A stretch of DNA of 64,000 nucleotides from an uncultured Bacillota bacterium (GTDB taxonomy: Bacteria > Bacillota > Clostridia > Christensenellales > UBA1242). The notes beneath the pieces were generated by a model. It did not search any database, was not told where the DNA came from, and saw nothing but the letters and a program-made list of their open reading frames with translations. Of the stretch, positions 3,006-24,900 are shown in pieces. How positions within the stretch are numbered: position 1 is the first letter of the stretch; the number at the start of each line of letters is the position of its first letter. The stretch covers positions 8,756 to 72,755 of the forward strand of contig UQVQ01000002.1 of the NCBI GenBank assembly GCA_900544595.1, in the 5' to 3' direction. The position numbers and the translations under genes were made by a program.

Positions 3006-4448
3006 CTATTCAAACAAGTCTTTAATTTCTTCAAGTTCTTTTTCGTCAATAACAGGCTCTGCTTTAATTTCTTCGTCTGTTTTCGCAACAACTGTTTTTG
3101 GTTTTAGAGGTTGTTGCCCTTTTTTATAATCCGAAAAACTTGTTGTTTCGCCAATCCAGCGCAATTTAACAGTTCCTTGGCGCCCGTTTCTGTGCTTTGC
3201 AACAATAAGTTCTGCAACATCACTTTCTTCCGTAACAACATCGTTATACATATCTGGCTTATATATAAACATAACAATATCAGCATCTTGCTCAATTGAA
3301 CCGCTGTCACGAAGGTCGGAAAGAACAGGTCGATGGTCGCCTTTTCTTTGCTCAACAGCACGCGAAAGTTGCGAAAGAAGGATAATTGGAACATTAAGTT
3401 CCCTTGCGGCAATTTTAAGAGTTCTTGTTATTTCCCCAACTTCCAAAACCTTGTTATCGAAAGTTGAATTTTTGTCTGCTTTCATAAGTTGAAGATAGTC
3501 AATCATAACAAGGTCAAGCCCGCGCTCTCTCTTAATTCTTCTGCACTTTGAAAGTATGTCGTTAGGGTCGTTAATACTTGAATCGTCAATGAAAATGTTT
3601 GCTTCCGAAAGTTTACGGCTTGCTTTAATCATTGCTGTCCATTCGTCAACAGAAAGTTGCCCTTTAAGAGCCTTTTCCATACTAACGCCAGCAACCGAGC
3701 ACATAGATCTTTGCGCAATTTGTGTTTTTGGCATTTCAAGAGAGAAAATTGCACAATTTTTCTTTCCGTCAACCGCAGCATTTGTAACAATGTTCATGGC
3801 AAGAGATGTTTTTCCAACGCCAGGACGAGCAGCAAGCAAAATAAGATCGGAATTTTGAAGCCCGTTTGTTATAGCGTCCAAATCCGTGAACCCAGTTGAA
3901 AGCCCGCGAAGAGAATTTGGATCTTTTGCAATTTGATTAAGTTTTTCAATAACCTCTTTTAAAGCGCCTTCAATATGTTCAAGCGACGAAACATCTTGAT
4001 TTTCTGCAATATCGAAAATTTCTTTTTCGGCAAATTTAAGCGCTGCTTTGTCATCGGTTGCATCATAAGCAGTTTCAATAATTTTTTGTCCGCTTGAAAT
4101 AAGTTTTCTAAAAAGCGAATCGCGCTTAACAATGTCAACATAATATTTAAAGTTTGCAGCCGAAGGAACAGCATTTGTTAATGTTGTCACATATTCAATT
4201 CCTCCAACATTTTCAAGTTCGCCATTTTTATCAAGTAAATCGGTTAAAGTAACAAAGTCAATTGGTTTATTTGCTCTGTAAAGTTCTTGCATTCTTTCGT
4301 AAATTTTTTTGTTAACAGCGGAATAGAAATCGTCGCCTGTTAGCGCCGAAAAAATTGTAAGTGGAGCCTCATTATCAATAAGCATTGCTCCAAGAACCGA
4401 TTGTTCTGCTTCAATGCTATGTGGCATAGTTTTAAATTTCTCGCTCAT
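3006..4448 (-). CDS. dnaB: replicative DNA helicase DnaB
   Basis: N-terminal PHSIEAEQSVLGAML, Walker A ARPGVGKTS, and LVMIDYLQLM. The start is set at MSEKFK, behind an AGGAGG SD. The C-terminal extension is unusually acidic. Confidence 0.95.
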   Translation of the reverse strand: MSEKFKTMPHSIEAEQSVLGAMLIDNEAPLTIFSALTGDDFYSAVNKKIYERMQELYRANKPIDFVTLTDLLDKNGELENVGGIEYVTTLTNAVPSAANFKYYVDIVKRDSLFRKLISSGQKIIETAYDATDDKAALKFAEKEIFDIAENQDVSSLEHIEGALKEVIEKLNQIAKDPNSLRGLSTGFTDLDAITNGLQNSDLILLAARPGVGKTSLAMNIVTNAAVDGKKNCAIFSLEMPKTQIAQRSMCSVAGVSMEKALKGQLSVDEWTAMIKASRKLSEANIFIDDSSINDPNDILSKCRRIKRERGLDLVMIDYLQLMKADKNSTFDNKVLEVGEITRTLKIAARELNVPIILLSQLSRAVEQRKGDHRPVLSDLRDSGSIEQDADIVMFIYKPDMYNDVVTEESDVAELIVAKHRNGRQGTVKLRWIGETTSFSDYKKGQQPLKPKTVVAKTDEEIKAEPVIDEKELEEIKDLFE

Positions 4449-4458
4449 TTTCTTCCTC

Positions 4459-4740
4459 CTAGTCTGCAAATGGGTCGCGTCGTTTTGGCCTTGAAGCCTC
4501 GCGTTTTTGAACTGCCTTATTAACTAAAAAGAAAACAAGTTCAACAATTCCAATAATCGCACCCCAGCAAACAACTGTTAAAAACAATTGAAGACCAACA
4601 GAAAGTTTGAGCCAATAGAAAAGATATGCAAACGCAACACCAAAAGGAATTGACGCAAACATTTCAATCATTCTTCTTTTTGCATCTTTCTTAAATTTTC
4701 GTTTTTCTTTTCTGTCAATCACACGCGAATTATAACACAA
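4459..4740 (-). CDS. small two-TM membrane protein
   Basis: 93-aa ORF with two hydrophobic helices. It stops 10 nt before the dnaB start. The listed start is TTG; an internal ATG at 4671 is an alternative. Confidence 0.5.
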   Translation of the reverse strand: MCYNSRVIDRKEKRKFKKDAKRRMIEMFASIPFGVAFAYLFYWLKLSVGLQLFLTVVCWGAIIGIVELVFFLVNKAVQKREASRPKRRDPFAD

Positions 4741-4762: not shown

Positions 4763-5653
4763 TTAACCTTCGCCGTTTGTTGGAATTTCAAATTTAGTTG
4801 TTGAATCGTCTTTTTCTGGTTCAATTTTATCATTTTTTGGCCGTTTAAAATAGATAACAATAAGATAGATGGCAACGAAAATAAAGGCAATTGCAAGGCA
4901 AATTAAATAGTATATAAGCCTGTTTGCTTGAACAACATAAAACTCAAATTCAGGTTCGGCATAGTCGCTGTTTGAATAGAAACAATAAATCGTTCCGCCT
5001 GCAATTTCCATTGTTTCATTCGCGTTTTTCGCGCGCAATTTAACATTTTGCGTTACAAACATATAATAGAATTCAATATTTGGAATTTTATTCACGGTTT
5101 CCTCGCCAAGGGTTCTAAGCGCCGATTTTGCGCCCGTTTCAAAATATTCTTCCAAACTTGTTGTTATTATGTTGTTTTTTGTTTTTGAGAAAACGCCCTT
5201 AAATTTTTCTGTTGTAACAGTTTTAAATGTTGTTGCGTCGTTTTCTGCGCCGGAATATTCCGCGCTTCGAATGAAAATTCTTGAAGATGCCTTGGAAGCA
5301 AATCGAAGCTCAATTGCAAAAGCCCCATCATTCCAATTCATATAGGAACTTAAATGATTTTTGTAAATTATTTTTTCGTTTTCAGTTATAAATCCTTGCT
5401 CTTTAAAACTGGTTAATGCCGCGTAGTAACGCAAAATTATGTCATCAAGATAGTCGCTTGCAAGACCCTCCACTTTATTTTTCAAAACCGCTTGCTCGCT
5501 TTCCGTAAGAGCTCCATATCCGCTTGAAAAATCTGCAACAAAATAATATGACGAGAAATTTGTGTTAACAGCCGAAAGCTCAACTGCCGATGTGCAACCC
5601 GCAAGCGAAAAGCCAAAAAGCATTATAAACATTAAAACAAAAATCTTTTTCAT
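4763..5653 (-). CDS. lipoprotein with an additional C-terminal TM segment, unknown function
   Basis: Signal peptide with a lipobox (FSLAGC) and a C-terminal hydrophobic helix. Confidence 0.75.
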   Translation of the reverse strand: MKKIFVLMFIMLFGFSLAGCTSAVELSAVNTNFSSYYFVADFSSGYGALTESEQAVLKNKVEGLASDYLDDIILRYYAALTSFKEQGFITENEKIIYKNHLSSYMNWNDGAFAIELRFASKASSRIFIRSAEYSGAENDATTFKTVTTEKFKGVFSKTKNNIITTSLEEYFETGAKSALRTLGEETVNKIPNIEFYYMFVTQNVKLRAKNANETMEIAGGTIYCFYSNSDYAEPEFEFYVVQANRLIYYLICLAIAFIFVAIYLIVIYFKRPKNDKIEPEKDDSTTKFEIPTNGEG

Positions 5654-5742: not shown

Positions 5743-5773
5743 AAAATAAAAATCGCTCCCAAAAGGGAACGAT
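5743..5773 (-). terminator. intrinsic terminator of the 802-aa gene
   Basis: Hairpin ATCGTTCCC-tttt-GGGAGCGAT followed by TTTTATTTT on the minus strand. Confidence 0.7.
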
Positions 5774-5782
5774 TTTATCTAA

Positions 5783-8191
5783 CTAATTTTTTGGGTTAAC
5801 CCCATTAACTGTTTTATCAAGCGCTTTTTGTTGCTCTTGAAGAAGCCTGTTTTGTTCTTTAAGCCTTTCCTCAATGAGTTTCAAATTTTCGTCGATATTA
5901 ATTTTTTTAGGACGACCGCGTTTACCTGCTGGTTTTGGAGCTTCTTCGGTTTGTTCCTTTCTTGGGCGTCCGCGCTTGCCCGCTGGCTTTGGAGCTTCTT
6001 CGGTTTGCTCTTTTTTTGGACGACCGCGTTTACCCGCTGGCTTTGGAGTTTCTTCGGTTTGCTCTTTTCTTGGGCGTCCGCGCTTGCCCGCTGGCTTTGG
6101 AGTTTCTTCGGTTTGCTCTTTTCTTGGGCGACCGCGTTTGCCTGCTGGTTTTGGAGCTTCTTCGGTTTGCTCCTTTCTTGGGCGACCACGCTTTTTACCT
6201 TCTGGTTTTTCCTCGGTTTTTTGCTCTTCGCTTGCTTCTTCCAAAATTTCTTCATTCGAAGTTTTGTCAGGTTCTTCGTTGTCAAACGCAGCTAAATCTT
6301 CAACTTCTTCAAAAGCTTGTCCTTCAGCTTTTTCTTCTGGTTGTTCTTCGGCTTTTTCTTCAACCGGTTCTTCAACAACGCGTTCTTGAATTTCTTTCTC
6401 CTTTGGTTCAACTTCTTCTGGCTTGCTTTTATCTTCAATTAAAATGCCGTCTTTATCAAAAACTTTTCCAGTTTCGTCGTGATAGTTGCCTTGTGGGTCG
6501 TAATATGAGCCGTTTGGATAGACATAGTTTCCGTTGTCGTCATATTTCCCGCCAAATTCGTCTGCTTTTGGCTCTTCAATCTTAATTTCTTCAACAGGTT
6601 GCTCTTCCGTAATTTCCTGTTTATCTTTTTGTTTTGATTTTTGTTTTGCATTCGCTTTTTCAATTTCTGCAACGTAACTTGAAGAAATAAGTTGAATTTG
6701 TTTATTCTTTTCGTTAAGTTGTTCTTGTTGTGCAATAAGTTTTTCTTGAAGTTCGCGTTTTTCTTTTTCAACGCTTGCTTTAACATATGCTTCACGTTCT
6801 GCTGCTTTATTAACTAAAACTTTGTTTTGCATTTCAAGAGTGTCAATTTGAGTCATTGCTTTTTCAAGTTCGCGAGCAACTTCTTCTCTTGCGCCAATAA
6901 GTTCTTCGCGCTCATCTTTAACGCGTTCATTAACGCTTTCACGAATTTCTTCATAAATTTTGTTAGAGAAGGTTTTGTATTCTGCGAGCATCGATTTTTC
7001 AACGTTAAGTCGACCTTCTTCAAGCTCTTCTTTTCTCTTTGTGATTTCAGCGGTTAAATTGTCGATTGATTGATTGAATTTAAGTTGAGCATCTGTTTGG
7101 TCTTTTTCAATTTGTTGTTGTTTCTTAATTTCGTCTGCTTGTTGTTTTCTAATGTAGTTGCTTTCAATACGGTTAGTTGTTGCCTCTTGTTGCTCTCTTA
7201 AACGCTCTGTGTTTTCCTTGCTTGCTTGAAGTTTCTTTTGATAGTCTTTGCTTGTGTTTTCAAAACTACGTTTAAGGCTGTCCATTTCTTTTTCAAATTG
7301 GTCAATTTCTGTGTTCAAACGATTGCGCATACTAACAAAAATTTCTGTTTCTTTCATGGCGCGTTCCAAAACAAGTTCGCCTTTCTCGCCCGCTTCTTCA
7401 AAATTATATGCCTCATGTTGAATTGCATTTTCTCTTGCCTTTTTCATCTCTTCTTGTTCTTGAAGTTGGCGTTTTTCAATGTATTCGTTCAAAACAGGAA
7501 TTCCACGTTTAATTTCTTTTGCAGTGAACAAAACTTCAAAGTCTACATAACTTGGCATTGTTGAAACTGCTTTATCAATAAATCTATTAAAAATGTGGAA
7601 AGTTTGATAGAGTTCGCTTGTGTTTCCTGCTTTTCTAATGTCCAAAGCGATAACAAAAATGTAGTTCAAGAGCAAAACCATTGCTGGAATTGCAAAAATC
7701 ATAATGTAAACACCTGTTCCAATGTCTGTTTGGCTTGATGCAAAACCGCATGCAAAGATGAACGAAAGAATTGCATAGATATAACTTAAAGCCTTTGCAA
7801 CCTTAATGTTCGCCGAAAGCGCGCTGCTTTTAAGCGGTCTGTCAATGCAGTTAACAACCGACATATATTCGCTTGGTGCTTTATCTCTGTTAAGCATATA
7901 TTGTTGCCAATGATATCTTAAAGTTTTTGGCACCCTTTTCATCATGTTGTTAAACTCAATTAAATTGCTTTCGTTTATATATTGAACTTCGTATAAATAA
8001 GCATTGATTTTATCAACCGCACGAGTTAAGCGCATTTCATAAACATTATGCGCAACGATTGAGAAAACAATGATTGTTAAAACTTCAAGTCCAACAAATA
8101 TGTATAATAAGTATTCAAGCGAAAAATTTGTTTTAATTGTTTCGAAGAAATTTATTACACTTTGAAAAATATCAACGTTTAATAACTTCAT
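5783..8191 (-). CDS. membrane-anchored coiled-coil protein with six C-terminal AT-hook repeats
   Basis: Three N-terminal TM helices are followed by about 300 aa of heptad-rich E/K/Q sequence and an acidic spacer. Then come six copies of KRGRP(R/K)KEQTEE(A/T)PKPAG and a short terminal coiled coil. The gene has its own promoter region and its own terminator. Confidence 0.85.
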   Translation of the reverse strand: MKLLNVDIFQSVINFFETIKTNFSLEYLLYIFVGLEVLTIIVFSIVAHNVYEMRLTRAVDKINAYLYEVQYINESNLIEFNNMMKRVPKTLRYHWQQYMLNRDKAPSEYMSVVNCIDRPLKSSALSANIKVAKALSYIYAILSFIFACGFASSQTDIGTGVYIMIFAIPAMVLLLNYIFVIALDIRKAGNTSELYQTFHIFNRFIDKAVSTMPSYVDFEVLFTAKEIKRGIPVLNEYIEKRQLQEQEEMKKARENAIQHEAYNFEEAGEKGELVLERAMKETEIFVSMRNRLNTEIDQFEKEMDSLKRSFENTSKDYQKKLQASKENTERLREQQEATTNRIESNYIRKQQADEIKKQQQIEKDQTDAQLKFNQSIDNLTAEITKRKEELEEGRLNVEKSMLAEYKTFSNKIYEEIRESVNERVKDEREELIGAREEVARELEKAMTQIDTLEMQNKVLVNKAAEREAYVKASVEKEKRELQEKLIAQQEQLNEKNKQIQLISSSYVAEIEKANAKQKSKQKDKQEITEEQPVEEIKIEEPKADEFGGKYDDNGNYVYPNGSYYDPQGNYHDETGKVFDKDGILIEDKSKPEEVEPKEKEIQERVVEEPVEEKAEEQPEEKAEGQAFEEVEDLAAFDNEEPDKTSNEEILEEASEEQKTEEKPEGKKRGRPRKEQTEEAPKPAGKRGRPRKEQTEETPKPAGKRGRPRKEQTEETPKPAGKRGRPKKEQTEEAPKPAGKRGRPRKEQTEEAPKPAGKRGRPKKINIDENLKLIEERLKEQNRLLQEQQKALDKTVNGVNPKN
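5910..6205. repeat. 54-bp tandem repeat, about 5.5 units (encodes the AT-hook array)
   Basis: Units such as ggacgaccgcgtttacctgctggttttggagcttcttcggtttgttcctttctt recur with a few substitutions. Confidence 0.95.
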
Positions 8192-8295
8192 TATTTTTTA
8201 ACCTCCATGTTAAATTCGAAATTAGTATAACACATAAAAAAATTATTAACTAATATTTTTTCAATATTTTTTAATAATTTTTCAATATTTTTTTA

Positions 8296-11200
8296 TTATT
8301 TAATTTTGATTATTTTAAAGTTCCTTAAACTTAACAAATAAATCTCGTCAATATCTTTTCCAAGAGCTTTTTGGGCGGCAAAAGCATAAGTTAAAAGTTG
8401 CTTTTTATATTTTGAAACAAGCTTTTCTTCGTTTGTAATTGACGTGTATTTATAGTCAATTAAAATGTTTTTTTCGCCAACAAAAATTAAATCTAATTTC
8501 CCTTGGATTAAAATCTTTTCTTCTTCACCTTCCCCAAAAATTTCTTTTGGGCTTGCATAAATCATAAACTGTTTTTCTTTAAACACCTTCCCATTTTTTG
8601 GCAAAACTTCGCGAAGAAGAGAAATGTTTTTCAAAACAGTTTTTGAAAGGTCTGTTTCAGGAATTTTTGTTTGTTTTTTTGAAAGAACTTCAACGTCGTT
8701 TGAAAGAGTTTCACTTTCAAAATCAACTTTTTCCAAAATTTCATGAACAATTGTTCCTTCTTCTGGCGTTGAGATTTCGCTTAAATGTTCGCTAACATAA
8801 AATTTGTTTGGAAGAGAATTTTCGCTTTCATATGGCTTAACTTCTTCGCCAAACACAACTTCACTAACAGAGGTTTTAAGAGCAAGTTTTGTTGCGTTTT
8901 CATTTGCATAAACAAAGTCAATTTTTTCTTTTGCTTTTTTCAAAATTTCAATGTTTTGAACCTCAACCTCGCGTTTCTCGTTTTTAACTTCAAAAACTTC
9001 GCAAATTTCGGCTTTAACATTTTTACAATCGGCAAGTGCGCCCAGTATATAATTTAAGTAAGTTGGCATAATAAACTCCAAGTTTGTCAATTTTGTGATA
9101 GGCTCAATTTCTTTTGAAATCTCGCCCGTTATTATAAGTTTATTTTTTGCTCTTGTGAGCGCAACATAAAGAAGACGCAAATTTTCTGCAATTTCCTTTT
9201 TCTTTGCGCGCGAATAAAGAATTTGTTTAAAAATTGAATCATAAATTTTTCTTTCGGCTTTATTATAGTTGTCAATTGCAAAGCCAAGATTTTTGTCAAT
9301 TTTAAGGTCGTCCGTTTCTGGCTTTGTTTTTGTTAAATCTTTGCCCGTTTCGCCCAAAATAACAACAGGAAATTCGAGCCCCTTGCTTGCGTGAATTGTT
9401 GTTATTAAAACTGCGTTATCGTCGCATTTTTTCAAACTTGCCGTTTTAAGATTTGAAATGCTTGTTAAATATGAAACCAATCCAAAAAGGTTAAATTCAA
9501 ATCCACTTTGCTGAACATATTTCAAAAATTGTTTAAGCCTTTCCCCTCTTTCTTTTCCGCCTTTAAGCGAAAGAACAAACTCAAAAAATTTTGTTTCATA
9601 AAAAAGATTTTCAAGAGCCGCACTTGCTCCGTTTGTTTGAATTTCAAAATTTAATCTATCAAGAAGAGAGTTGAATTTTTGAATTTTAACAGAGATTTCG
9701 TTGGAATTTTCTTTTGAATATTCCAAAACTTTTTCAAAGAAAAATTCTTTGTTTGAAAAAAGTTTAATTTTTGCAAGCTCGTCAAACGAAAACATACCAA
9801 AATGGGAAGCCATTACCGCCGCCAACGCGAAATCATCGTTTCGATTAAGACAAAGTTTTAAAATTGAAATAACCAAACAAACTTCTTTCGACGAAAGAAG
9901 GTCGAACTCATCGTTAACAATGAACGGAACGTTGTTTTCAAGAAAAAGCGAAACTAAATCAACAAGCAAATTCGAACGATTTTTAACCAAGATTGCAATG
10001 TCGCCAAAATTAACTTTTTTCTCTTCCCCATCTAAAACAATTCTTTCATTTATTACATTATTAACTACTTTCAAAATTGCCTTTGATTCCAAACTGTAAT
10101 TCTTAAAATTTCTTTTTGAATTAAGAACTTTAAAAACCTCGCTTGGCGCTTCTTCTTTTTCTTTTTCCTCTTTCAAAACTTTAACAATCTTAACGCTGCT
10201 TCCTTCGCAAGAGTTATCACTTTCCCCTTTAAACATTGCGTTTTTTTCATAGTTAATTCCGCAACTTTTTTCGGTCATCAAAACTTTGAAAACATCGTTA
10301 TCAAAATCAAGAATTTCTTTGTTTGTTCTGAAATTACAGTTAAGCGGAAGCGATTGCTTTTCCTTTGCCGTTTCAAATTCCTTGCAAATGTCAACAAAAA
10401 TTTCAACATCCGATTGCCTAAACGCATAAATGCTTTGCTTTGCATCGCCAACAAAAAGAACATTGTTGTTTTTTGAAATCTTTTTTAAAATTGCATATTG
10501 CATTGGGTTAATATCTTGGAATTCGTCAACGAAAATTTTCTCATAGCCGTTCCTAATTTCATTGCAAATTTCGTCGTTTTCCAAAATCTTTGCGCAAAAA
10601 GTTTCAAGGTCGGAAAAATCAAACGCCCCAAGTTCTCTTTTTTTCTCGTCTAAAAGATTTTTATAGTCGCAATATAAATTAACAAGCGAAGTTATGTTTT
10701 CTTTGCAACTTTCAAACGACGAAACAATGTTGTCATATGTTCCAAAATCAAACGCTTTAATCTTTTTAATATAGTCGCCAAGTTCTTCTTTCGCCTCTTT
10801 AACATCTTGGAAAGTTTGAGTTTCTGGAACCTGCGATTTCAAAAGTTTTGGAAGAGAAAACTCGTCCGAAACAAATTCTAACAAGTTTTCATTCTTGCAA
10901 TTTAAGAGTTCGTCAATTTTTAAGTTGCATAAGTTAATGTGCTTGCAAAGCTCTTTTTCATCAAAAATGCTTGCCTTTTCCAAAAGCAAATTAAGTTTAT
11001 TTTTAAAATATGAAACATTGTTTTTAATTTCGCCAAAAAATGTTGAAAGGGTTTCATCTTTGTTTTCATACAAACTTCTTGAAACTTTTTCAAGCCAAAC
11101 TTTGGGTTGATATTGCGAAGAAAGAAAGTTATCAATTTTAAAAATTCTCTCTTTAATTGCCCTGTCGCTTCTCTTTTTCCCAAGAACATCGCAAAGTTCC

Positions 11201-11655
11201 AAATATTTTTCAAAAGACTCTTTTTTAAGTTTTTGAGCAGCCTCCAAAAACGCTTCGTCTTTAAGAGAAAGCAATTTTTCATTTGAAAGGATTTCGAATT
11301 CAGGTTGAATTCCAACTATGTAGAAATATTTTTTAACAATTTTTTCATAGAAAGAGTGGAAAGTTGAAATATCGGCTTCCAAAACAGAATCAATTTCGCT
11401 TGCAAATTCAACACGCCCCGTTTTTTCAACAAGTTCGCCAAGTTTTGAAAGAAGCCTTTGTTTCATTTGCGCCGCGGCTTGATTGGTGAAAGTAAGCGCT
11501 AATATATTTTTAACTTTAACGCCTTGCATAAGATATTTTAGAACTTTTTCAATCATAACAGTTGTTTTTCCGCTTCCCGCCGAAGCCGAAACAATTGCGC
11601 TTTCGCCGTCAAGGTCTAAAACTCTTTCTTGTTCCTCAATCTTTTTCCTTTCCAT
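8296..11655 (-). CDS. addA: ATP-dependent helicase/nuclease subunit A (AddA/RexA)
   Basis: UvrD-like Walker A (ASAGSGKTT) and a C-terminal RecB-type nuclease motif (GKLDLIF...LIDYKYT). An AAGGAAG SD is present. It lies directly downstream of addB. Confidence 0.9.
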   Translation of the reverse strand: MERKKIEEQERVLDLDGESAIVSASAGSGKTTVMIEKVLKYLMQGVKVKNILALTFTNQAAAQMKQRLLSKLGELVEKTGRVEFASEIDSVLEADISTFHSFYEKIVKKYFYIVGIQPEFEILSNEKLLSLKDEAFLEAAQKLKKESFEKYLELCDVLGKKRSDRAIKERIFKIDNFLSSQYQPKVWLEKVSRSLYENKDETLSTFFGEIKNNVSYFKNKLNLLLEKASIFDEKELCKHINLCNLKIDELLNCKNENLLEFVSDEFSLPKLLKSQVPETQTFQDVKEAKEELGDYIKKIKAFDFGTYDNIVSSFESCKENITSLVNLYCDYKNLLDEKKRELGAFDFSDLETFCAKILENDEICNEIRNGYEKIFVDEFQDINPMQYAILKKISKNNNVLFVGDAKQSIYAFRQSDVEIFVDICKEFETAKEKQSLPLNCNFRTNKEILDFDNDVFKVLMTEKSCGINYEKNAMFKGESDNSCEGSSVKIVKVLKEEKEKEEAPSEVFKVLNSKRNFKNYSLESKAILKVVNNVINERIVLDGEEKKVNFGDIAILVKNRSNLLVDLVSLFLENNVPFIVNDEFDLLSSKEVCLVISILKLCLNRNDDFALAAVMASHFGMFSFDELAKIKLFSNKEFFFEKVLEYSKENSNEISVKIQKFNSLLDRLNFEIQTNGASAALENLFYETKFFEFVLSLKGGKERGERLKQFLKYVQQSGFEFNLFGLVSYLTSISNLKTASLKKCDDNAVLITTIHASKGLEFPVVILGETGKDLTKTKPETDDLKIDKNLGFAIDNYNKAERKIYDSIFKQILYSRAKKKEIAENLRLLYVALTRAKNKLIITGEISKEIEPITKLTNLEFIMPTYLNYILGALADCKNVKAEICEVFEVKNEKREVEVQNIEILKKAKEKIDFVYANENATKLALKTSVSEVVFGEEVKPYESENSLPNKFYVSEHLSEISTPEEGTIVHEILEKVDFESETLSNDVEVLSKKQTKIPETDLSKTVLKNISLLREVLPKNGKVFKEKQFMIYASPKEIFGEGEEEKILIQGKLDLIFVGEKNILIDYKYTSITNEEKLVSKYKKQLLTYAFAAQKALGKDIDEIYLLSLRNFKIIKIK

Positions 11656-11679
11656 TTTTCTTCCTTTATAATTCGACTT

Positions 11680-14600
11680 TTAATTTTGGTTCAATATGCC
11701 GATGAAATCCGCCTGGGAAAGCTCTTTCCCGCTGTCCCTTTGCTGCTCTCTTTCATCTTGCTTAAACGAGCAAATTCCAAAGAACGGACAATTTTTGCAA
11801 ACATATCCTTCAATTGGCTTTGCTGGAATTTCGCCGCTTAAAATTTCTTTTTCTGCACTTGAAAGCAAAAGTTTAACATACTCAATTGCCGCCTCAAATC
11901 CTTCTTTTGAAAAAACATTTTTTGTTGTTGAAAGAACAAGACAATCTGCCGTGGATTTTGGCGAAAGTCTAAGCGCAACAATGCTGCTTTGTGTTTTGCT
12001 TCCAAATCGCCTGTCAAGTGCCTTTAAAACACCTTGCTCGCCAAGAACAAAACCTTCAAGTTTAAATTTCTTTGAAGCAGATTTCGAAAAATCTCCGCCA
12101 ATTGGAAGATAGAACCCTCCGGCAAGCTCTTTCGAAAATTTTTGTTGCATGGCAATTAAATAAATGAAAAGTTGAAGTTCAATTCCATTATAAACCGCCC
12201 TCAAACTCTTTTTAACTTCCCCGCTTTTATAATCAACAACGCGAAGATAGTTTTCGCAAAAATCAACACGGTCAACAATTCCAAAAAGCGATTTTTCGTT
12301 AAGCGGAATTTCAAAACCTTGTTCCATAAATTTTGCAACAAATCCCGAAAATTTTTGTTCGCACGAAACGCTTTCAAAAAGCATTTTCGTTTCTTTTTTA
12401 AGCATCTCAAAAATATGCTTATTCTTAATATTTTTTGAAAGAAGCGAAAATCTTTCGTTGTTTTTAATTATTTCATCAATTTTTTCAAGTTCAAACTCAA
12501 TTTCATCGCTTGAAAGTTCGCCAAGCCTTCCCAAATTTCTCTTAACAAAATTTTGCGCCGCAATGTGAAAATAGTTTCCTTCGTCGCGCGCGTCAAAAAC
12601 ATTTTTGGGATTTTCTTTAAGTTTAAGCCCGTGCGTGAAAAAATGTTTAAACGGACACATAAAAAATCTTTCAATTCCCGTTGGCGAAAACTTTTGATAA
12701 AGATTTTTTGCAAGCGAAATTTTTTCTTCCCTAATTTTTTCTTTCCCAAAAACCTCTTCAAATTCTTCTTTTGAAATTCGATTTTGCTTTCTAAGTTTTA
12801 AAAGTTCTTCCTTAAAATCTCGTTCGCTTTGAATGTTGAAAAAAACAAACTCATCATATGGCAAAAATTGCGCAAAGAAACTTCCAAAAATTTGAATTGG
12901 CTTTCCGTCTTTCGAAAAAATTTTTTGAAGTTCAGAAAATATAATCGACTTCTCAACTTTTTCGCCAAGTTCATTTCCGCTTGACGAAACAAAAAGTTCT
13001 TCGTTTGGCGCAATGTCAAACAAAACTTTTTGCTTGCTTCGCCTGTTAAGCATTCGAATTGTTGGCTCAATTTCCAAATTCATTTGCGAAATATCGTCGT
13101 CCGAAATCAAACCAAGATCTTTCGAAGCAAGCGGAATTTTTCCCGCGCTCGCCCCGCAAACAAACATAACATCTCGCTTTTCAAAAAACGATTTTTCTCC
13201 GCCCGCAAAAACACAATCGGTTGAAATTGGAACAGCCGAAATTTCCTTCTCGCCAAAAAGCGAAAGAAAGAGATTTGAAAATTCATCAAATGAAGTTTCA
13301 AAATCATTTGAAAGTTCGCTAATTATTCCGTCAATCTTTTTAAAAATTTGAAGATATATTTTTTCATTTTTTAAATTATTTTTTGAGAAATAATTGATTA
13401 ACTCGTCGTTTTTTTCTTTTAAATTAAATTCCGAAATAATTTCGTAAATTAAATTCGAAAAATATGAAAATGAATTAGACTTTTGCGTTTTTTGTTTAAA
13501 ATAATTAATTTTTTCAATAATATTTTTAATATTTTCAAAATTATTTGCTAATTCCTCGTTAAATTCATCGTTTAACATAGCAAGATTTTTAAGCGACGAA
13601 ATTTCCTCGCTTGGAATTGAAAGATATGGATTTAAAATAAGATTGAAAAAATCACTTTCATTTTTTGAATTTAAATAGGAAAATAATGAAACAAAAAATG
13701 TGTGAATTGGAAGAGTTGAAATTGCCCTCGACGTGTCAAGAAAAAGCGGAATGTTATATTCCTCAAAAACTCGCTCAAAAATTTGAGATGTCCCGTTTAA
13801 ATCGCCCGATAGAATGTTGAAATTCGAAAAACGCTTGTTCTTTGTTTTAACATAAAACAAAATCGTCTTTGCAATTTCTTGAATCTCTTTTTCTGGCGTT
13901 TCAAATTCCAAAAGATGAACTTTGTTTGTTTCAAGAACTTTTGGCGAAAATGAAAATAAATTTTCCAAAATGTGCGATGAAAGTGAATTTGATGTGTTTT
14001 TTAAATATGTCTTTTTAATTTCAATTTTGTTTCTTCTTGAAATTCTTGAAATCTTGTTTAAAATGTCCGCGTCGTATGTAAGCGCGTTTTTTTGATTTGA
14101 AGGCTGCGTTGCCCCAATAACAACTCGCTTCGAAAAAAGAATAAGTTTTTCCAAAATGGATTCACCTTGCGCGGTTAAACTGTCGAACCCCGCAAAGAAA
14201 AATGAACAATCTTTAACTTTCTCAAATGAAATGTTGCTTGAAAGATTTGTTAAAACATCGCTTTGGTCGGGAAACTCTTTTTTGTTTTCGTAAATTGAAA
14301 ACACCCTCGCAACCTCTTTTTGCTTTTCGCCTTGCGCGCCCTTCTCAAAATCAAAAGAAGAAATCTTGCTCGACTTAATTTGCGAAATTATGTTAAAAAG
14401 TTCGGATGCAAGTTCAATTGTTGGCTTAAAAAATTTAAACTCCCCGCTTCGAAGAATCTCATAAACCAAAAGTTTGCTCTCGTTTTGCGAAAGAACTTTT
14501 TCTTCGTTTGAAAAATATGCCGCAAGACGCGAAATCCCAAGAACCTTTATGTTAAATGAAGACGAAATTCCAAGTTGCTCAAAAACAAGTTTTTCCGCAA

Positions 14601-14745
14601 GAAGCGAAAACCTGTCTGGAACAACAACAAAATTTTCAAGTTCAAACGAACTTGAAATTTCAATTTGCGAAATAACCGCCTTCGAAACTTCGTCCAAATT
14701 GTTCCCAACAATTGCAATCGCGTTCATATATGAGAATATTAACAT
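11680..14745 (-). CDS. addB: helicase-nuclease subunit B (AddB/RexB)
   Basis: Nuclease motif GIVDRVDF...VVDYKSG and a C-terminal Fe-S cysteine cluster (CPFKHF...CKNCPFFGIC). The N-terminal P-loop is degenerate (VGNNLDEVSK). The start is uncertain (14745 or 14727). Confidence 0.85.
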   Translation of the reverse strand: MLIFSYMNAIAIVGNNLDEVSKAVISQIEISSSFELENFVVVPDRFSLLAEKLVFEQLGISSSFNIKVLGISRLAAYFSNEEKVLSQNESKLLVYEILRSGEFKFFKPTIELASELFNIISQIKSSKISSFDFEKGAQGEKQKEVARVFSIYENKKEFPDQSDVLTNLSSNISFEKVKDCSFFFAGFDSLTAQGESILEKLILFSKRVVIGATQPSNQKNALTYDADILNKISRISRRNKIEIKKTYLKNTSNSLSSHILENLFSFSPKVLETNKVHLLEFETPEKEIQEIAKTILFYVKTKNKRFSNFNILSGDLNGTSQIFERVFEEYNIPLFLDTSRAISTLPIHTFFVSLFSYLNSKNESDFFNLILNPYLSIPSEEISSLKNLAMLNDEFNEELANNFENIKNIIEKINYFKQKTQKSNSFSYFSNLIYEIISEFNLKEKNDELINYFSKNNLKNEKIYLQIFKKIDGIISELSNDFETSFDEFSNLFLSLFGEKEISAVPISTDCVFAGGEKSFFEKRDVMFVCGASAGKIPLASKDLGLISDDDISQMNLEIEPTIRMLNRRSKQKVLFDIAPNEELFVSSSGNELGEKVEKSIIFSELQKIFSKDGKPIQIFGSFFAQFLPYDEFVFFNIQSERDFKEELLKLRKQNRISKEEFEEVFGKEKIREEKISLAKNLYQKFSPTGIERFFMCPFKHFFTHGLKLKENPKNVFDARDEGNYFHIAAQNFVKRNLGRLGELSSDEIEFELEKIDEIIKNNERFSLLSKNIKNKHIFEMLKKETKMLFESVSCEQKFSGFVAKFMEQGFEIPLNEKSLFGIVDRVDFCENYLRVVDYKSGEVKKSLRAVYNGIELQLFIYLIAMQQKFSKELAGGFYLPIGGDFSKSASKKFKLEGFVLGEQGVLKALDRRFGSKTQSSIVALRLSPKSTADCLVLSTTKNVFSKEGFEAAIEYVKLLLSSAEKEILSGEIPAKPIEGYVCKNCPFFGICSFKQDEREQQRDSGKELSQADFIGILNQN

Positions 14746-15211: not shown

Positions 15212-16198
15212 ATGAAATTGACAATAGGAAAAAAAATTACAATTGGGCTTGTAACAGCGGGACTTCTTGCCAGCGCATTTGTTGCAACATTTTTTGGCGT
15301 TAAAGCTGCAAAAGAAAAAGCTTCAGAAAAACCAGGTCCGTCCGTAACAACCCCAGTTCAACCAGACAATCCAAACATTCCAGACCAACCAGATCAACCA
15401 GATCAACCAGATCAACCAGATCAACCAGATCAACCAGACCAACCAGACCCTCCAGTAATCGAAAAAACCGAACAAGACTATATGAATGAATGCCAGGAAA
15501 GAATTGAAACAATTGCATTAGAAAAATTGCAATCAACAAGCAAACGCGGAACATTCGACAACATCAATATTTTAAAAATAAACGAACTTAACGGAAAAGT
15601 TTACTTAACAGCAGATAAAACTTTAACCGGCATTACCACAACATCTTTTTACGAACTTAATCTTGGAAAGAACTTTGAAAATTCAACTTATGAACAATCC
15701 TTGAAAATCTTAAATTCAATTTCTTCTGTAAGCGGAACAGAACTTACAACTCAAACTGTTTTACAAAAAGCAGTTTCCGAAGAACTTTACAACCAACTTT
15801 GCGACTATGTTTTAGATAAAGTTGGTCTTGAAGGCGCTCAAATCCTTAACGCAACTGAATTCACTGCCGATAATAAAGGATACACTTCAAATTTAACTTG
15901 CTTCAAGGATAATAAAATTTACACTGTAAAAGCAAATGTAATTTCTTTTGGCTCCCAAGATGAACATATTAACAACTTATTAACCGAAGGAAGAACAAAA
16001 GAAATTAAAATCACAAGTGAAGAAAGTTTTAAAGAATTCGTAACAGAGTCAACAGCACAGGCTTCGGCGCAAAGCAATGTTGTTTATTTCGACATCACTT
16101 TCCCTTCGTTCGACAGCGAAACAAACAAAGAAACAACAAAAACTTTAACTGTTCGCCAAACAAACGGCAAAGCGGACTATCGCGGCCTTTCCCTTTAA
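15212..16198 (+). CDS. N-terminally anchored surface protein with a (PDQ)n linker
   Basis: 328 aa with an N-terminal TM/signal anchor and a PDQPDQ... spacer. There is no recognisable catalytic motif. Confidence 0.7.
   Translation: MKLTIGKKITIGLVTAGLLASAFVATFFGVKAAKEKASEKPGPSVTTPVQPDNPNIPDQPDQPDQPDQPDQPDQPDQPDPPVIEKTEQDYMNECQERIETIALEKLQSTSKRGTFDNINILKINELNGKVYLTADKTLTGITTTSFYELNLGKNFENSTYEQSLKILNSISSVSGTELTTQTVLQKAVSEELYNQLCDYVLDKVGLEGAQILNATEFTADNKGYTSNLTCFKDNKIYTVKANVISFGSQDEHINNLLTEGRTKEIKITSEESFKEFVTESTAQASAQSNVVYFDITFPSFDSETNKETTKTLTVRQTNGKADYRGLSL
15380..15448. repeat. 9-bp tandem repeat (ccagaYcaa, about 7 units)
   Basis: Read directly from the sequence; it encodes the PDQ repeats. 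Confidence 0.9.
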
Positions 16199-18320: not shown

Positions 18321-19070
18321 TTAAAAACTTGAGGCTTTAAGGAGTTCTTTTTTAAGCCGCTCCAAAATTTTCTTTTCAATCCTTGAAATGTAACTTTGAG
18401 AAATTCCCATAAGGTCGGCAACTTCTTTTTGAGTTTTTTCCTCTTTTCCCAAAAGTCCAAAGCGCAAAATCATAATTTCCTGTTCTCTTGCGCCAAGTTT
18501 TTTAATGCTCTCCCAAAGCATTTGTTTTTCAACGCTTTGGTCAAGTTCTTTCGAAACGCTGTCCTCTTCCGTAAACAAAATGTCCGAAAGCAAAAGTTCG
18601 TTCCCGTCGCCGTCGAGGCTTAGCGGCTCGTCGAAACTAACCTCTCCTTTAACGCGGCTTGTTTTTCGAAGTTGCATCAAAATTTCGTTTTCAATGCATC
18701 TGCTTGCATATGTTGCAAGTTTAATTTGTTTATCATACTTATAAGTTTGGACGGCTTTAATAAGTCCAATTGCGCCAATTGAAATAAGGTCTTCCAAGTC
18801 CAGCCCCGTGTTCTCAAATTTTTTCGCAATGTAAACAACAAGGCGCAAGTTATGTTCAATAAGTTTTTCTTTCGCGCTGTCGTTCCCGTTTGAAAGTTCT
18901 TCAAGCAAAATTCGTTCCTCGTCGGCTTCAAGCGGCCAAGGAAGAGCGTCGTTCCCGCAAATATAGCAAACAAGGCTTTCGGCGTCTAAAAAGTTCAAAT
19001 TTTTGTTTTTTTGTTTCAAATTGTTGAAAAAAGTTCTAATTTTTCTAAGTATTTTATCGTAAATTTTCAT
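18321..19070 (-). CDS. sigE: sporulation sigma factor SigE (pro-sigma-E)
   Basis: [51 protein letters not shown] and [13 protein letters not shown] closely resemble B. subtilis SigE. It has an N-terminal pro-sequence. The ATG at 19070 follows an AAGGAG SD and overlaps the spoIIGA stop (ATGA). Confidence 0.9.
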
Positions 19071-19948
19071 ACAAACTCCTTTGCAAATTCTGCGCCCATA
19101 AGAGCGCGGCAATCGTAACATTTTTGAAATTTAACAAGCGAAAGTCCAACTGCAACATCTTGAAATTCTTTCGTGTTGCCTTGTCCAAGCGAAACGCAAA
19201 AATTTTCAACTTCGCAAACAAGCATCTTGCTTTGCCCCGTTGCCGTTCCATAAGTTATGTAATGGCTGTTTCCAATTTCATTCTCATCAATTTTTTTTGT
19301 TATGATTTTTTCAAACGGAACATCAAAAATTTTGCTAAAAACCGAAAGTTCAACAATCAAAACTGGTTTTTTTGAAATTGGATCGAAAAGCGCATTCCCG
19401 CTGTCTAGAAAAACATCAAACTTTGTTGTTTTGCCTTTGTTCGAAATTTCGCCCTGAAAAATGAAATTCCCAATAAGTTTTCGTCGTCCAACCGATTTAA
19501 TAACCCTTGCAATTCCAAAGCAAACAAGCGAGCACATAAGAAGAACAACTCCAACAGGAAGTTCCATTTCATAGACGGTTAAAAATCCGTTTTCCATTTT
19601 CCCGCCAAAGAGAAAAACAATTCCCATGCACGCCCCGCCAACCGCCGCGGTCATAATTAAAAAAACCGAAAAGGCAAGCGCATTTTTCTTAAAGCCATTT
19701 GTTTTAAGCCCAAGCCTTGCAATAACGAGCCCAAGAAGAACCTTATAGGCAATCATAAGCCAAGTTGGAAGCGAAAGAAGAGGCGTTATAAGCGAAAAAA
19801 TTGCTCCAAAGCAAGCGGCAATAAAGAGCCGGAGTTTCCTTTTTTCAAGTCGCAAAACAAGCGCGGAAAGATATAGAATAAGAAAGTTGATAACAATATT
19901 GTCAATCAAAACATATTCAACAACAATTTCCACATTTTTATTATACAA
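19067..19948 (-). CDS. spoIIGA: sigma-E processing peptidase SpoIIGA
   Basis: Polytopic N-terminal half and a C-terminal half carrying the FLDSGN aspartic-protease motif. It is located immediately upstream of sigE. Confidence 0.85.
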
Positions 19949-21919: not shown

Positions 21920-24900
21920 TTATTCTGCTGTTTTTTGTTCATATTTAACAGCATCGCTAAGTTTAACAGAAACAACTTTTGAAACACCTTTTTCTTCCAT
22001 TGTAACCCCGTAAAGCGAATCGGCAAGTTCCATTGTTGGTTTCTTGTGGGTTATAACAATGAACTGAGTGTCGCTTGAGAACTTGCGCAAATATTGTGCA
22101 AATCTATAAACATTCGCTTCGTCCAAGGCTGCCTCAATTTCGTCAAGCAAACAGAATGGCATTGGGCGAAGTTTCAAAATCGCAAACAAAATTGCAATTG
22201 CTGTAAGCGCTTTCTCTCCTCCGCTAAGAAGCGAGTTTGAAGAAAGTTTTTTCCCAGGTGGCTCTGCCAAAATTTCAACTCCGGCTTCCAAAACATTTTC
22301 GCTTCCAATAAGTTCAAGTTTTGCGTTTCCGCCTCCAAAAAGTTCGCGGAAAGTGATTTTGAAGTTTTCGTTAATTTTGTTGAACTCTTCTGTAAATCTT
22401 GTTCTCATTTCTGTTGAAAGTTCGTCGATGATTTGAAGAAGTTCGTCTTGCGCTTTGTTAAGGTCGTCAACTTGGCCTGCAAGCGCATCATATCTTTCGC
22501 TTAAAATCTTTGAATCTTCAATTGCGGCAACGTTGATATAACCAAGACGAGAAATTTCTTTTTTAATTCTCGTAATTTCCGCAAGACCTTTGTTAAGATT
22601 GAATTCCTCATCGCGAAGAGCCAAACACGCATTATAATCAAGTTCGTATTCTTCCAAAATTTTGTCTTGCATTGTGTCGATATCTGTGTCGACCTTGTTA
22701 ATTTTAAATTCCTCGTTAAGTTTTTTCTCGTTAATCTTGTTAACTTCTGCCATAAGGAAAGTTCTTTTTTCTTCAAGTTCTTTAAGACTTTGTTGCAAAC
22801 TAACTTTGTTTTCATCAAGTTGTTTTTGTTCTTTTTTAAGGTTTTCAAGTTTTTGTTTTGCTTCCGCATTTGTTGCATTTTCAATTTGCCATGCAACCAA
22901 ATCTTCGGCATCCTCAACACTTTTTGTGTTATGTTCAAACTCAACTTGTGCAATTTCTTGTTTACGCTCGGAATCTGTAAGTTGCGCGTCAAGACGCTCA
23001 AGTTCTTGGGTTGTTCCCATAATTTCGCTTGTTATCGAAGCAATGTTAACCCTAATTTCAGTTAGTTGTTTGCTAAATTTTTCGCGTTCTTCTTTAAGTT
23101 CGTTAAATCTTGATTGACGCTTTGCAATTGCTTCGTTTGCGCCTTCTTTGCTTGCGCCAGCCGCGTTTTCAAGATTTTCGATGTTTTGAATTTCGCGGGA
23201 AATAACTTCAATTTTGTTTGTTGCAATAATTTTTGAATTATTAAGCCCGTCAAGTTCGGTTTTGTATGAAGAAATTAAAGCTTCAACAGCCAAAAGTTTT
23301 TCATCTTCTTTTGCAATTTCAACTTCCAATTCTTTTTGTTTCGCAGAAATAAATTCAAATTGTTTAATTAAAGTTGAAAGTTCTTGTTTTTTTGCTTTAA
23401 TTTTTTCGTCGCCCGTTGCGAAAAGTTCTTTAAGTTTTTCAATTTCTTCGCCAAGCGTTTTAATTTCGCGGTCGCGACTTATAAGGTTAACTGCTTCGCT
23501 CTTTTTGCTTCCGCCTGTCATCGACCCTTGTGGGTTAATAACATCGCCATCAAGAGTTACAATTTTAAATCCAAATCTGGCGTTTTGCGCAAGTTTAATT
23601 GCGGTGTCCAAATTGTTAACAATAACAGTTGCGCCAAGAAGGTTTGCAATAACATTATCAATTGACGAATCAAAGGAAATAAGGTCTTTTGCAATTCCAA
23701 AACACCCGTCGGTTCGAAGCAAATTCTTTTCCTCTTGCGAAAGGTTTCTTGGTTTCATTGATGTTATTGGAAGGAATGTTGCGCGTCCAAATTGGCGCTC
23801 TTTCAAAAATTCGATAAGACTTTTTGCGTCGTATTCGTCTTTTGTTACGATGTTTTGAAGAGCATTCCCAAGCGCGGTTTCAATTGCTGTTTCATATTTT
23901 TCTGGAACAGTTATGAGCGACGCCAAAACACCAACCATTTTTTTCGAGAATTGTTCGTTTCTTTCGGCCTCTTTCAAAAGTTTTTTAACGCTTCCCGCAT
24001 AGCCTTCGTGTTCGGCTTGCATCTCTTCCAAAATTCTTTTTCGGTTTTCATAAACTTGAATTTTTGTTCCGCAATTTTGAACTTCGCGCTCAAGATTTGA
24101 AAGTTCATCTTGAACTCGATTCGTTTCAAGCTTACCCTTCAAAACAACATCAAGTTGTTCTTTATTTTGCGCGGAAAGATTGCTTGCTCGCTTTGAAATT
24201 TGTTCCTTAACTGTGTTTTGTTCTGCAAGTTTTTCATCAATGAATAAAATTCTTGTTTCAATTTCCGAAAGCGATGTTTTGCTTGCTTCGCGTTCCGCCA
24301 AAAGACGAGATGAATTGGATTTAATGTTTGTTAATTGGTCAAGCGCGTTAAACATTTCTTGTTGAGAACTTTCGGCTTCATCTTCGTTTAAGTTGAGTTC
24401 GTCAACAACTTTCAAATATTCTCTTGAAACGTTTTCTTCTTGTTTTTTAAGATTGTCAAGTTGTTCGTTTGTTTCGGAAAGATGGGAAGCGCGTTCCTCA
24501 ATTTGTTTTTTAATTGCGCTGTTAAGATTGTTATAGTTCTCAATGTCAAGCGCCAAACGGTTGTTTTGTTCTTTCAAAAACTTAATTCTTTCGCGAACAA
24601 CATTTGTTTCGCCAACTTGTTTTTCCAAACTAACTGTTAAGTTAAGAATGCTCTCGTGAAGCCTTTCTGTTGTTTTGTCAATTGCTTCAATGCTTGCCAT
24701 ATTGTTTGAATAGTTTTCAACAACATTTTCAAGTTCTTCTTGGCGAAGTTCAAGTTCTTCGTTAATTGCATCAAGCTTGCTTGAAATTTTTGCTTTCATA
24801 TCGTGCGCATTTTCATATTGATAGATATACGCATTAACTTCCAAATTCTTTAAAATTTCTTTAAGTTCAAGGAATTTTTTTGCATCTTCGCTTTGTTTTT

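Follow-up and report, generated by a model that had tools for sequence, protein, structure and literature searches.

A ZorA1-like membrane stalk with an AT-hook tip encoded behind addBA in uncultured Clostridia: a candidate membrane-to-DNA tether

What does a membrane protein that ends in an array of AT-hooks do behind the addB and addA genes of a gut anaerobe? The question is raised by one gene of a 64,000-nucleotide stretch of DNA (contig UQVQ01000002.1 of an uncultured Bacillota bacterium), analysed here over its full length and called the window below. This gene, to which we refer as the stalk gene, occupies 5783-8191 on the minus strand, from an ATG start to a stop codon at 5783-5785, and encodes 802 amino acids (aa). 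Three parts were established in its product: a membrane domain homologous to type I ZorA (ZorA1), a long cytoplasmic helical region and a conserved tip similar to that of HMGA and CarD. The reading that we favour, tentatively and at slightly less than an even chance, is that of an orphan ZorA1-derived stalk that would tether AT-rich DNA to the membrane, possibly together with AddAB.

To our knowledge, ZorA-type proteins are known only as one half of ZorAB, a proton-driven motor that serves in anti-phage defence and occurs mostly in bacteria with two membranes. The ZorA-type domain and the HMGA-like AT-hook domain are both known parts. What appears to be new is their combination, with no stator, a degenerate ion path and a putative DNA-binding tip, in fixed synteny with addBA in monoderm gut Clostridia, which we did not find described. 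Literature searches for AT-hook arrays combined with membrane proteins, Firmicutes, AddAB or MotA/ExbB returned nothing relevant, and the two Zorya structure papers mention neither an AT-hook nor an orphan ZorA. A first-pass annotation of this DNA, made from the sequence alone, had already called the combination undescribed, and no paper or database name was found for it.

The membrane domain and its homology to ZorA1

Hydropathy placed three transmembrane (TM) segments at aa 28-46, 134-152 and 163-181, and the helices of the AlphaFold models concurred, confirming the three TM helices, loop of about 85 aa and tight TM2-TM3 pair that had been read from the sequence. TM1 (8054-8110; all features of the stalk gene lie on the minus strand) corresponds to a modelled helix at aa 25-48. 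It is followed by a membrane-proximal domain (aa 48-133, 7793-8050), which forms the loop of about 86 aa between TM1 and TM2 and holds the invariant residues W95, R102, P106, S107 and P119. TM2 (7736-7792) is poorly conserved and makes a tight hairpin with TM3, mapped to aa 163-184 (7640-7705), which contains the string FAIPAMV (aa 166-172). Since both the TM1-TM2 loop and the residues after TM3 are basic, the loop and the C-terminal 600 aa would be cytoplasmic, as in ZorA. TM1, the membrane-proximal domain, the hairpin and the start of the tail make up an N-terminal membrane domain (aa 1-230, 7502-8191) that resembled ZorA1 by AlphaFold, Foldseek and hhalign.

AlphaFold models of aa 1-300 were built with 9 and with 40 family sequences (pLDDT, the predicted local distance difference test, 76.9 and 88.3, respectively) and searched with Foldseek against 350,542 PDB chains; both gave the same ranking. 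The first four chains were E. coli ZorA (8qyd, 8qyk, 8qyy and 8qyh; E 1.5e-3 to 8.7e-3, probability 1.0, TM-score 0.42 to 0.55), the next 27 or so were all TolQ, ExbB or Shewanella ZorA, and MotA stood at rank 37. TolQ and ExbB, at ranks 5 to 31, reached E values of 0.1 to 0.9 and TM-scores of 0.28 to 0.47. The TolQ/ExbB/MotA-like topology proposed in the first-pass annotation may be present at the level of the fold; the AIPAV string in TM3 that had been cited with it is not conserved, only its Pro being kept (45 of 53 members). Nothing in a viral structure library exceeded a TM-score of 0.28 against the model.

For a comparison of profiles, a type I zorA1 was recovered from a Klebsiella plasmid, and 97 relatives were collected and 38 aligned. 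hhalign matched the family profile to the resulting ZorA1 profile with 95.7% probability (E 9.1e-9, 153 columns), pairing aa 53-208 of the stalk protein with aa 43-219 of ZorA1; reversal of either alignment gave no more than 0.3%, and twenty column shuffles no more than 0.9%. The family profile showed no similarity to the single sequences of E. coli TolQ (0.4%) and ExbB (1.8%). Two orthologues gave weak colinear hidden Markov model matches to ZorA1 models, which linked their aa 16-213 to model positions 24-218 of 727, the stretch that corresponds to the ZorA membrane domain. Invariant residues of the two families coincided as well (W95/W84, R102/R108, P106-S107/P112-S113 and P119-L120/P126-L127 for the stalk protein and ZorA, respectively). 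In ZorA, R108 is joined to the beginning of the tail by a salt bridge that is required for function (PMC11946911). Judged from profiles and the predicted fold, the membrane domain and that of type I ZorA are remotely homologous; the resemblance to ZorA noticed at first pass has held, and the profile and structure searches proposed then led to ZorA1 and not to an unrelated family.

Other matches and comparators were set aside. A PADLOC ZorA3 match of the whole protein (E 0.066) falls within the helical stalk and reflects its composition, and weak matches of 22 members to the NCBIfam model 'T6SS_Burk_ExIF' fall on the TM2-TM3 hairpin, far below threshold, and were likewise judged compositional. 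The type II ZorA of E. coli Sakai was dropped as a comparator for its different, loop-less layout. Sequence and profile searches of PDB sequences with the N-terminal 300 aa yielded nothing meaningful.

Motor residues and the search for a partner subunit

The stalk protein shares with ZorA1 (E. coli ZorA, PDB 8qyd) the homologous TM1, membrane-proximal domain and TM2-TM3 hairpin, the invariant Trp, Arg, Pro-Ser and Pro-Leu positions, an N-out/C-in topology, and a very long helical cytoplasmic tail right after TM3. However, its loci lack zorB, zorC and zorD, the protein has not kept the TM2 Gly/Thr motif, T147, S184 or E86, and its tail ends in an acidic segment and an AT-hook array. While ZorA belongs to a mobile defence island found mostly in diderm bacteria, the stalk gene is a core gene of fixed synteny in monoderm Clostridia. 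To ExbB, TolQ and MotA, the A subunits of 5:2 ion-driven motors (PF01618), it may be related in overall fold class by Foldseek and, in the case of ExbB and TolQ, in the three-TM topology with a large cytoplasmic loop; unlike them, it has neither an ExbD/TolR/MotB partner nor conserved polar TM residues, and it bears a 600-aa tail.

The ZorA TM2 motif HLPGxxTGxGIxGTFxG was absent from the family, and its Gly positions were not conserved. The position of the ion-filter residue T147 was occupied by Ala or Met in 47 of 53 members, and that of S184 by L, I, M, F or V in 51 of them. The Ca2+ ligand E86 aligned with Q97, a Gln in 47 of the 53, and the 17-residue ZorA hairpin that bears E89 and H92 was deleted. 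Along the protein, identity was lowest in the TM helices (20-30%) and reached 60-80% in the cytoplasmic loop and the region after TM3.

In agreement with the first-pass annotation, clustering of the neighbours in 64 loci revealed no adjacent ZorB/MotB/ExbD-like gene in any of them, and phmmer searches with ZorB1, ZorB2, TolR and ExbD gave no match at E<=1 among 5954 open reading frames (ORFs) of 70 loci plus the window. Similarly, the small TM proteins of the window included no N-terminal single-TM protein with an Asp, and hhalign comparisons among the downstream gene families found no B subunit. The DNA searched comprised 64 kb of the source genome and, for each homologue, at most about 20 kb of its surroundings. 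zorC and zorD were not found at the locus, where addB and addA are the only conserved neighbours. With the TM2 motif, T147 and S184, the Ca2+ site, ZorB and zorC/zorD all missing, the protein does not qualify as a functional Zorya A subunit, and the simplest reading of its sequence is a scaffold descended from ZorA that has lost ion conduction and rotation.

The same evidence bears on another explanation, that of a working Zorya-like sentinel, which would sense envelope perturbation or DNA entry, capture invading linear DNA and deliver it to AddAB. We regard this as rather improbable, and equally so the arrangement that it would call for, with AddAB in place of ZorC and ZorD and a stator partner encoded elsewhere or supplied by the TM helix of a lipoprotein. 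The homology to ZorA1 speaks for it, together with the constant adjacency to a helicase-nuclease and the long tail common to all ZorA types, a tail that Zorya needs for communication with its DNA-binding protein and nuclease (PMC11946911). Kiwa (KwaA/KwaB) offers a precedent, a membrane sensor coupled to a DNA-binding component, with an interplay with RecBCD-class enzymes (PMC11785009), although it shows no homology to the stalk protein, is a two-protein supercomplex with a DUF4868 DNA binder and is not encoded beside recBCD or addAB. A lipoprotein is also at hand. In the clade of the window, the next gene (4763-5653, minus strand) encodes 296 aa with a LAGC lipobox and a C-terminal TM helix, for which no family match was found. 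It adjoins the stalk gene in 12 loci, and a homologue (hhalign 98.3%) is the divergent upstream neighbour in three species in which the stalk gene lies away from addA; altogether, a lipoprotein with a C-terminal TM stands near the stalk gene in 15 loci, including the three without addA nearby. It is a possible partner of the stalk protein, of uncertain membership.

What lowers the chance of a sentinel is the lack of a ZorB, MotB, ExbD or TolR homologue among the roughly 6000 ORFs searched, as well as the replacement or deletion of T147, S184, the TM2 motif and the Ca2+ site in a protein whose TM helices are its least conserved part. Moreover, in its fixed synteny and vertical inheritance the gene behaves like part of the core genome and unlike a defence-island gene, no copy was found on viral contigs, and Zorya is under-represented in single-membrane bacteria according to the first of the two Zorya structure papers. 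Just as improbable is a Zorya-derived system without ZorB, ZorC and ZorD, in which a DNA-grabbing ZorA-like pentamer with an AT-hook or H1-like tip would work with AddAB. If true, it would combine anti-phage surveillance with double-strand-end processing in a chromosomally fixed form in single-membrane gut Clostridia, and it would be the first functional link of a 5:2-motor-type protein to a RecBCD-class enzyme.

The stalk and the AT-hook tip

TM3 is followed by a long cytoplasmic stalk (aa 185-520, 6632-7639) that is low in Pro and Gly, with 3 Pro and 6 Gly in 336 residues (2 and 4, respectively, in aa 185-300; 0 and 2 in aa 301-520). Its periodicity is about 3.64, and in aa 268-520 the amphipathic period of 3.64 had a power of 69.8, compared to 51.4 for the 99th-percentile shuffle value. 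The AlphaFold model, which covers aa 1-300, is mostly helical over aa 185-300, and helicity past residue 300 is predicted from composition and periodicity. The most conserved stretch of the protein lies here (aa 301-360, 7112-7291; 66-82% identity in 53 orthologues), a polar helix that looks like a partner-binding site and not a spacer. Further on, a Y/G/D-rich motif (aa 546-585, GGKYDDNGNYVYPNGSYYDPQGNYHDETGKVFDKDG; 6437-6556) is conserved throughout the family, with three to four YYDxxGxY-like turns; it is also kept in members without AT-hooks, and no Pfam family resembles it. The protein ends in an amphipathic helix (about aa 764-802, 5786-5896; periodicity 3.58, above shuffles), which accounts for the final short coiled coil of the first-pass annotation and has counterparts in many family members. 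The conservation of aa 300-360, the Y/G/D motif and the terminal helix seems to exceed what a spacer needs and makes all three candidate partner sites. The first-pass annotation mentioned neither the motif nor the conservation of aa 300-360, nor the addB-addA pair upstream.

Between the Y/G/D motif and the terminal helix lies the putative DNA-binding module. It starts with an acidic segment, probably disordered (aa 586-664, 6200-6436; 34 D/E in 79 residues, net charge -24), and continues with the AT-hook array (aa 665-765, 5897-6199; net charge +21), in which six KRGRP(R/K)K cores are spaced at 18 aa. The array is composed of five full 18-aa units, KRGRP(R/K)KEQTEE(A/T)PKPAG, plus a sixth core, KRGRPKK, and appears in the DNA as a tandem repeat at 5903-6193 (period 54 bp, 5.2 copies, 88% matches). 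Pfam AT_hook (PF02178) matched five stretches with 39 bits against a cut-off of 17.4 (E 3.5e-10). Both the strongly acidic spacer and the six RGRP repeats read earlier as AT-hooks were therefore upheld. An ORF of 216 aa on the plus strand (5935-6585) was rejected as a gene, being a shadow ORF created by the repeat region.

Codon differences between the repeat units of the window were mostly silent (48 synonymous, 10 non-synonymous). From 3 to 11 GRP(K/R)K cores were found near the C terminus in 53 of 55 complete orthologues, and of the two without cores, one is N-masked and the other ends early. The cores were strictly kept while the spacers varied between lineages in length (11-22 aa) and sequence. 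These comparisons indicate an array under selection in the orthologues; lineage-specific drift, which the first-pass annotation had named as the alternative that a survey of homologues should reveal, is not what was found. At positions 10001-12547 of another locus, L002, the N-terminal domain is 99% identical to that of the window protein, and eight hooks with more varied spacers are present in place of six. Hook number changes on short time scales.

Tails without hooks were compared to the Pfam model HC2 (histone H1-like nucleoprotein), and 4 of the 10 tested matched, one of them above the gathering score. The idea that the type of tail, AT-hook or not, follows genome G+C content was rejected, all loci having 23-41% G+C whichever tail they encode.

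The order of acidic segment and RGRP hooks is that of the DNA-binding domain of CarD (PMC4374960). Like the C-terminal domain of Myxococcus xanthus CarD and eukaryotic HMGA, the tip is a probably disordered module with an acidic segment followed by RGRP repeats, and relatives of the stalk protein carry a histone-H1-like basic tail in the same place. CarD, however, is a soluble transcription factor with four hooks and a CarD_CdnL_TRCF domain that binds RNA polymerase, while the module of the stalk protein, with its six hooks (3-11 in orthologues) and a helix behind them, is carried at the end of a stalk anchored in the membrane. No Pfam match to CarD_CdnL_TRCF was obtained in the window protein, whose N terminus is the membrane domain. 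HMGA-like and histone-H1-like domains were reportedly found to be functionally interchangeable in CarD by Garcia-Heras et al. in 2009. Retention of the cores, synonymous bias, and alternation between HMGA-like and H1-like tails are good indirect evidence for DNA binding by the tip, which would thus act as a DNA-binding module.

It could be argued that the tail does not bind DNA at all, the protein being a membrane scaffold whose charged, disordered end binds another polyanion or a protein, or is simply tolerated low-complexity sequence. AT-hook-like strings can arise in such sequence, repeat number differs between near-identical strains (6 versus 8), and half of the wider family has no GRP cores. 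Nevertheless, we consider this explanation very improbable: the core motif is strictly kept while the spacers drift, changes between units are mostly synonymous, and the array, where absent, is not lost but replaced by a histone-H1-like tail, another classical type of DNA-binding low-complexity sequence, the same exchange being reportedly found in CarD.

The place behind addBA and the proposed tether

The stalk gene follows addA (8296-11655; UvrD-type helicase plus PD-(D/E)XK nuclease) and addB (11680-14745; ADDB_N plus PD-(D/E)XK), both on the minus strand and identified by Pfam and synteny. addA was directly upstream on the same strand in 58 of the 61 loci with visible upstream sequence, with addB before it in 50, and the gaps between addA and the stalk gene were mostly 60-360 bp. 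Among five distant hook-less members (32-40% identity), four came directly after a Pfam-confirmed addA, and the fifth had an unannotated gene of >1000 aa in its place. Downstream genes varied from clade to clade.

The 104-bp region between addA and the stalk gene (8192-8295, minus strand) contains a promoter-like element, TATTAGTTA ... TGTGTTATACTAA, with an extended -10 (TGTGnTATACT), which is conserved in nine species in which the surrounding intergenic sequence has diverged. A GGAGG ribosome-binding site follows at 8202-8206, 10 nt 5' of the ATG, and no terminator-like site was found in the gap. An AT-rich tandem repeat with an 11/21-bp period, AATATTGAAAAA, lies within 8192-8301. Directly after the stop codon comes an intrinsic terminator-like hairpin (5749-5776, minus strand; 12-bp stem plus T run), in accordance with the terminator of its own that the first-pass annotation had assigned to the gene. 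These signals suggest that the stalk gene is at least partly an independent transcription unit.

An own promoter-like element and terminator also fit a housekeeping nucleoid-membrane tether, or a chromosome-organising or sporulation factor, with a role like that of Noc and RacA of Bacillus and with a merely historical position behind addBA. Such a factor would have the same anatomy as the tether proposed here. The stalk gene is away from addBA in three species, and no LexA/Cheo box (GAAC-N4-GTTC) was found upstream of it, the one chance match being inside addA. Furthermore, smc (21920-25516, minus strand) and spoIIGA with a sporulation-type sigma factor, sigE (18321-19948, minus strand, by Pfam), both within 17 kb, as well as dnaB (3006-4469), make this a chromosome-maintenance and sporulation neighbourhood; along with the G+C content of the window (35%), they agree with the AT-rich, sporulating lineage described at first pass. 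Noc and RacA are sequence-specific DNA binders of ParB-like or helix-turn-helix type, which reach the membrane via an amphipathic helix or DivIVA and are not integral. They resemble the stalk protein in the proposed role, the holding of chromosomal DNA at the membrane in a Firmicute, but show no homology to it. We consider a purely housekeeping role unlikely, though it deserves some weight. The adjacency to addA persists down to 32-40% N-terminal identity and across the split between AT-hook and H1-like tails, whereas all other neighbours change between clades, a pattern unexpected for neutral synteny.

The tether that we favour would work as follows. The ZorA tail is a pentameric bundle, about 70 nm long for 507 residues and required for assembly (PMC11946911). 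By homology, the stalk protein would form a pentamer like ZorA, and the approximately 310 helical residues after its membrane-proximal domain would yield a stalk reaching about 40-45 nm from the membrane into the nucleoid, with some 30 AT-hooks presented at its tip. There, AT-rich duplex DNA would be kept at a set distance from the membrane. As an intramolecular competitor, the acidic segment would probably mask the hooks until DNA displaces it; masking of this kind has been proposed for HMGA-type proteins. Given the missing proton-path residues, Ca2+ site and ZorB stator, the membrane part would most likely be a static anchor or sensor and not a rotary motor. In the weakest step of the argument, the fixed place behind addB-addA suggests that the tethered DNA is the DNA on which AddAB acts, either the ends of a broken chromosome or linear DNA that comes in near the membrane. 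A functional link to AddAB is probable going by synteny, which does not tell repair from the disposal of incoming DNA.

Several points weigh against this tether. The curated ZorA models (NCBIfam ZorA1 and PADLOC ZorA) did not match the window protein at its N-terminal domain, and the best family member reached 11-13 bits against the ZorA1 model, whose cut-off is 750 bits. MotA_ExbB (PF01618) gave no match at E<=10 for the window protein and was not among the 25 most-matched of 66 families in a scan of 53 members, which leaves room for a weak match in one or two of them. The region first described as about 300 aa of coiled coil proved to be a long periodic helical stalk but not a uniform heptad coiled coil, the coiled-coil pattern being clear in part only, and aa 300-360 within it are very polar and poorly amphipathic. 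At least two GRP cores were present in only 49 of 114 long representatives of the wider family, and the members without hooks have K/A/P/T-rich basic tails at the same position, some of them only moderately basic. Since about half of the wider family lacks AT-hooks, AT-specific binding cannot be its family-wide function. With a conserved promoter-like element and a terminator of its own, the stalk gene cannot be assumed to share a transcript with addBA, and its place there may be an accident frozen within a single order. The genome may also encode a B subunit outside the DNA searched. Finally, the DNA binding, oligomeric state, localisation and membrane tethering of the stalk protein are all properties that we infer.

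If the tether reading is true, a motor subunit would have been turned into a static membrane-to-nucleoid link, and a multivalent AT-hook array of the HMGA type would be at work in a bacterium, which is rare. The synteny with addBA gives rise to the idea that double-strand-end processing or the destruction of incoming DNA may be membrane-organised in abundant gut anaerobes. For Zorya research, the family may offer a natural 'tail-only' experiment on what the ZorA tail does without rotation. The family should interest those who study 5:2 motors, Zorya or the contacts between chromosome and membrane in bacteria.

A profile search through all of 1.84 billion representatives yielded 290 family clusters, 162 of them at E<=1e-30 and most of them 600-1400 aa long. 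A scan of one genome per GTDB species gave 64 loci, all from metagenome-assembled uncultured Clostridia, several of which were labelled Christensenellales or Christensenella. In a word-indexed search, the N-terminal 256 aa retrieved only fragments named 'hypothetical'. All database copies of the stalk protein bear the name hypothetical, and AT-hook was the only model of Pfam or NCBIfam that matched the window protein, so that the family deserves a name and a model. No viral copy was found in 2.9 million viral contigs; a phage-borne origin of the gene was rejected on this result and on the lack of a viral structural match.

In L001, a contig of coverage 0.65 from ENA ERZ2647912, the order addB-addA-stalk gene-...-dnaB was kept and all genes were frameshifted. 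These frameshifts are assembly errors and not pseudogenes, and errors of this kind explain why many database copies stop at the repeat array.

Further membrane proteins were observed around the locus. Between the lipoprotein gene and dnaB, the minus strand encodes a protein of 93 aa at 4459-4740, which has basic ends and two TM helices, the second of them with a Glu inside; the protein is conserved at this place in 10 loci, and Pfam gave no match for it. On the other side, divergent from addB, the plus strand encodes a single-pass membrane protein of 328 aa (15212-16198) with a perfect (PDQ)x7 repeat, which was present only in the two closest genomes.

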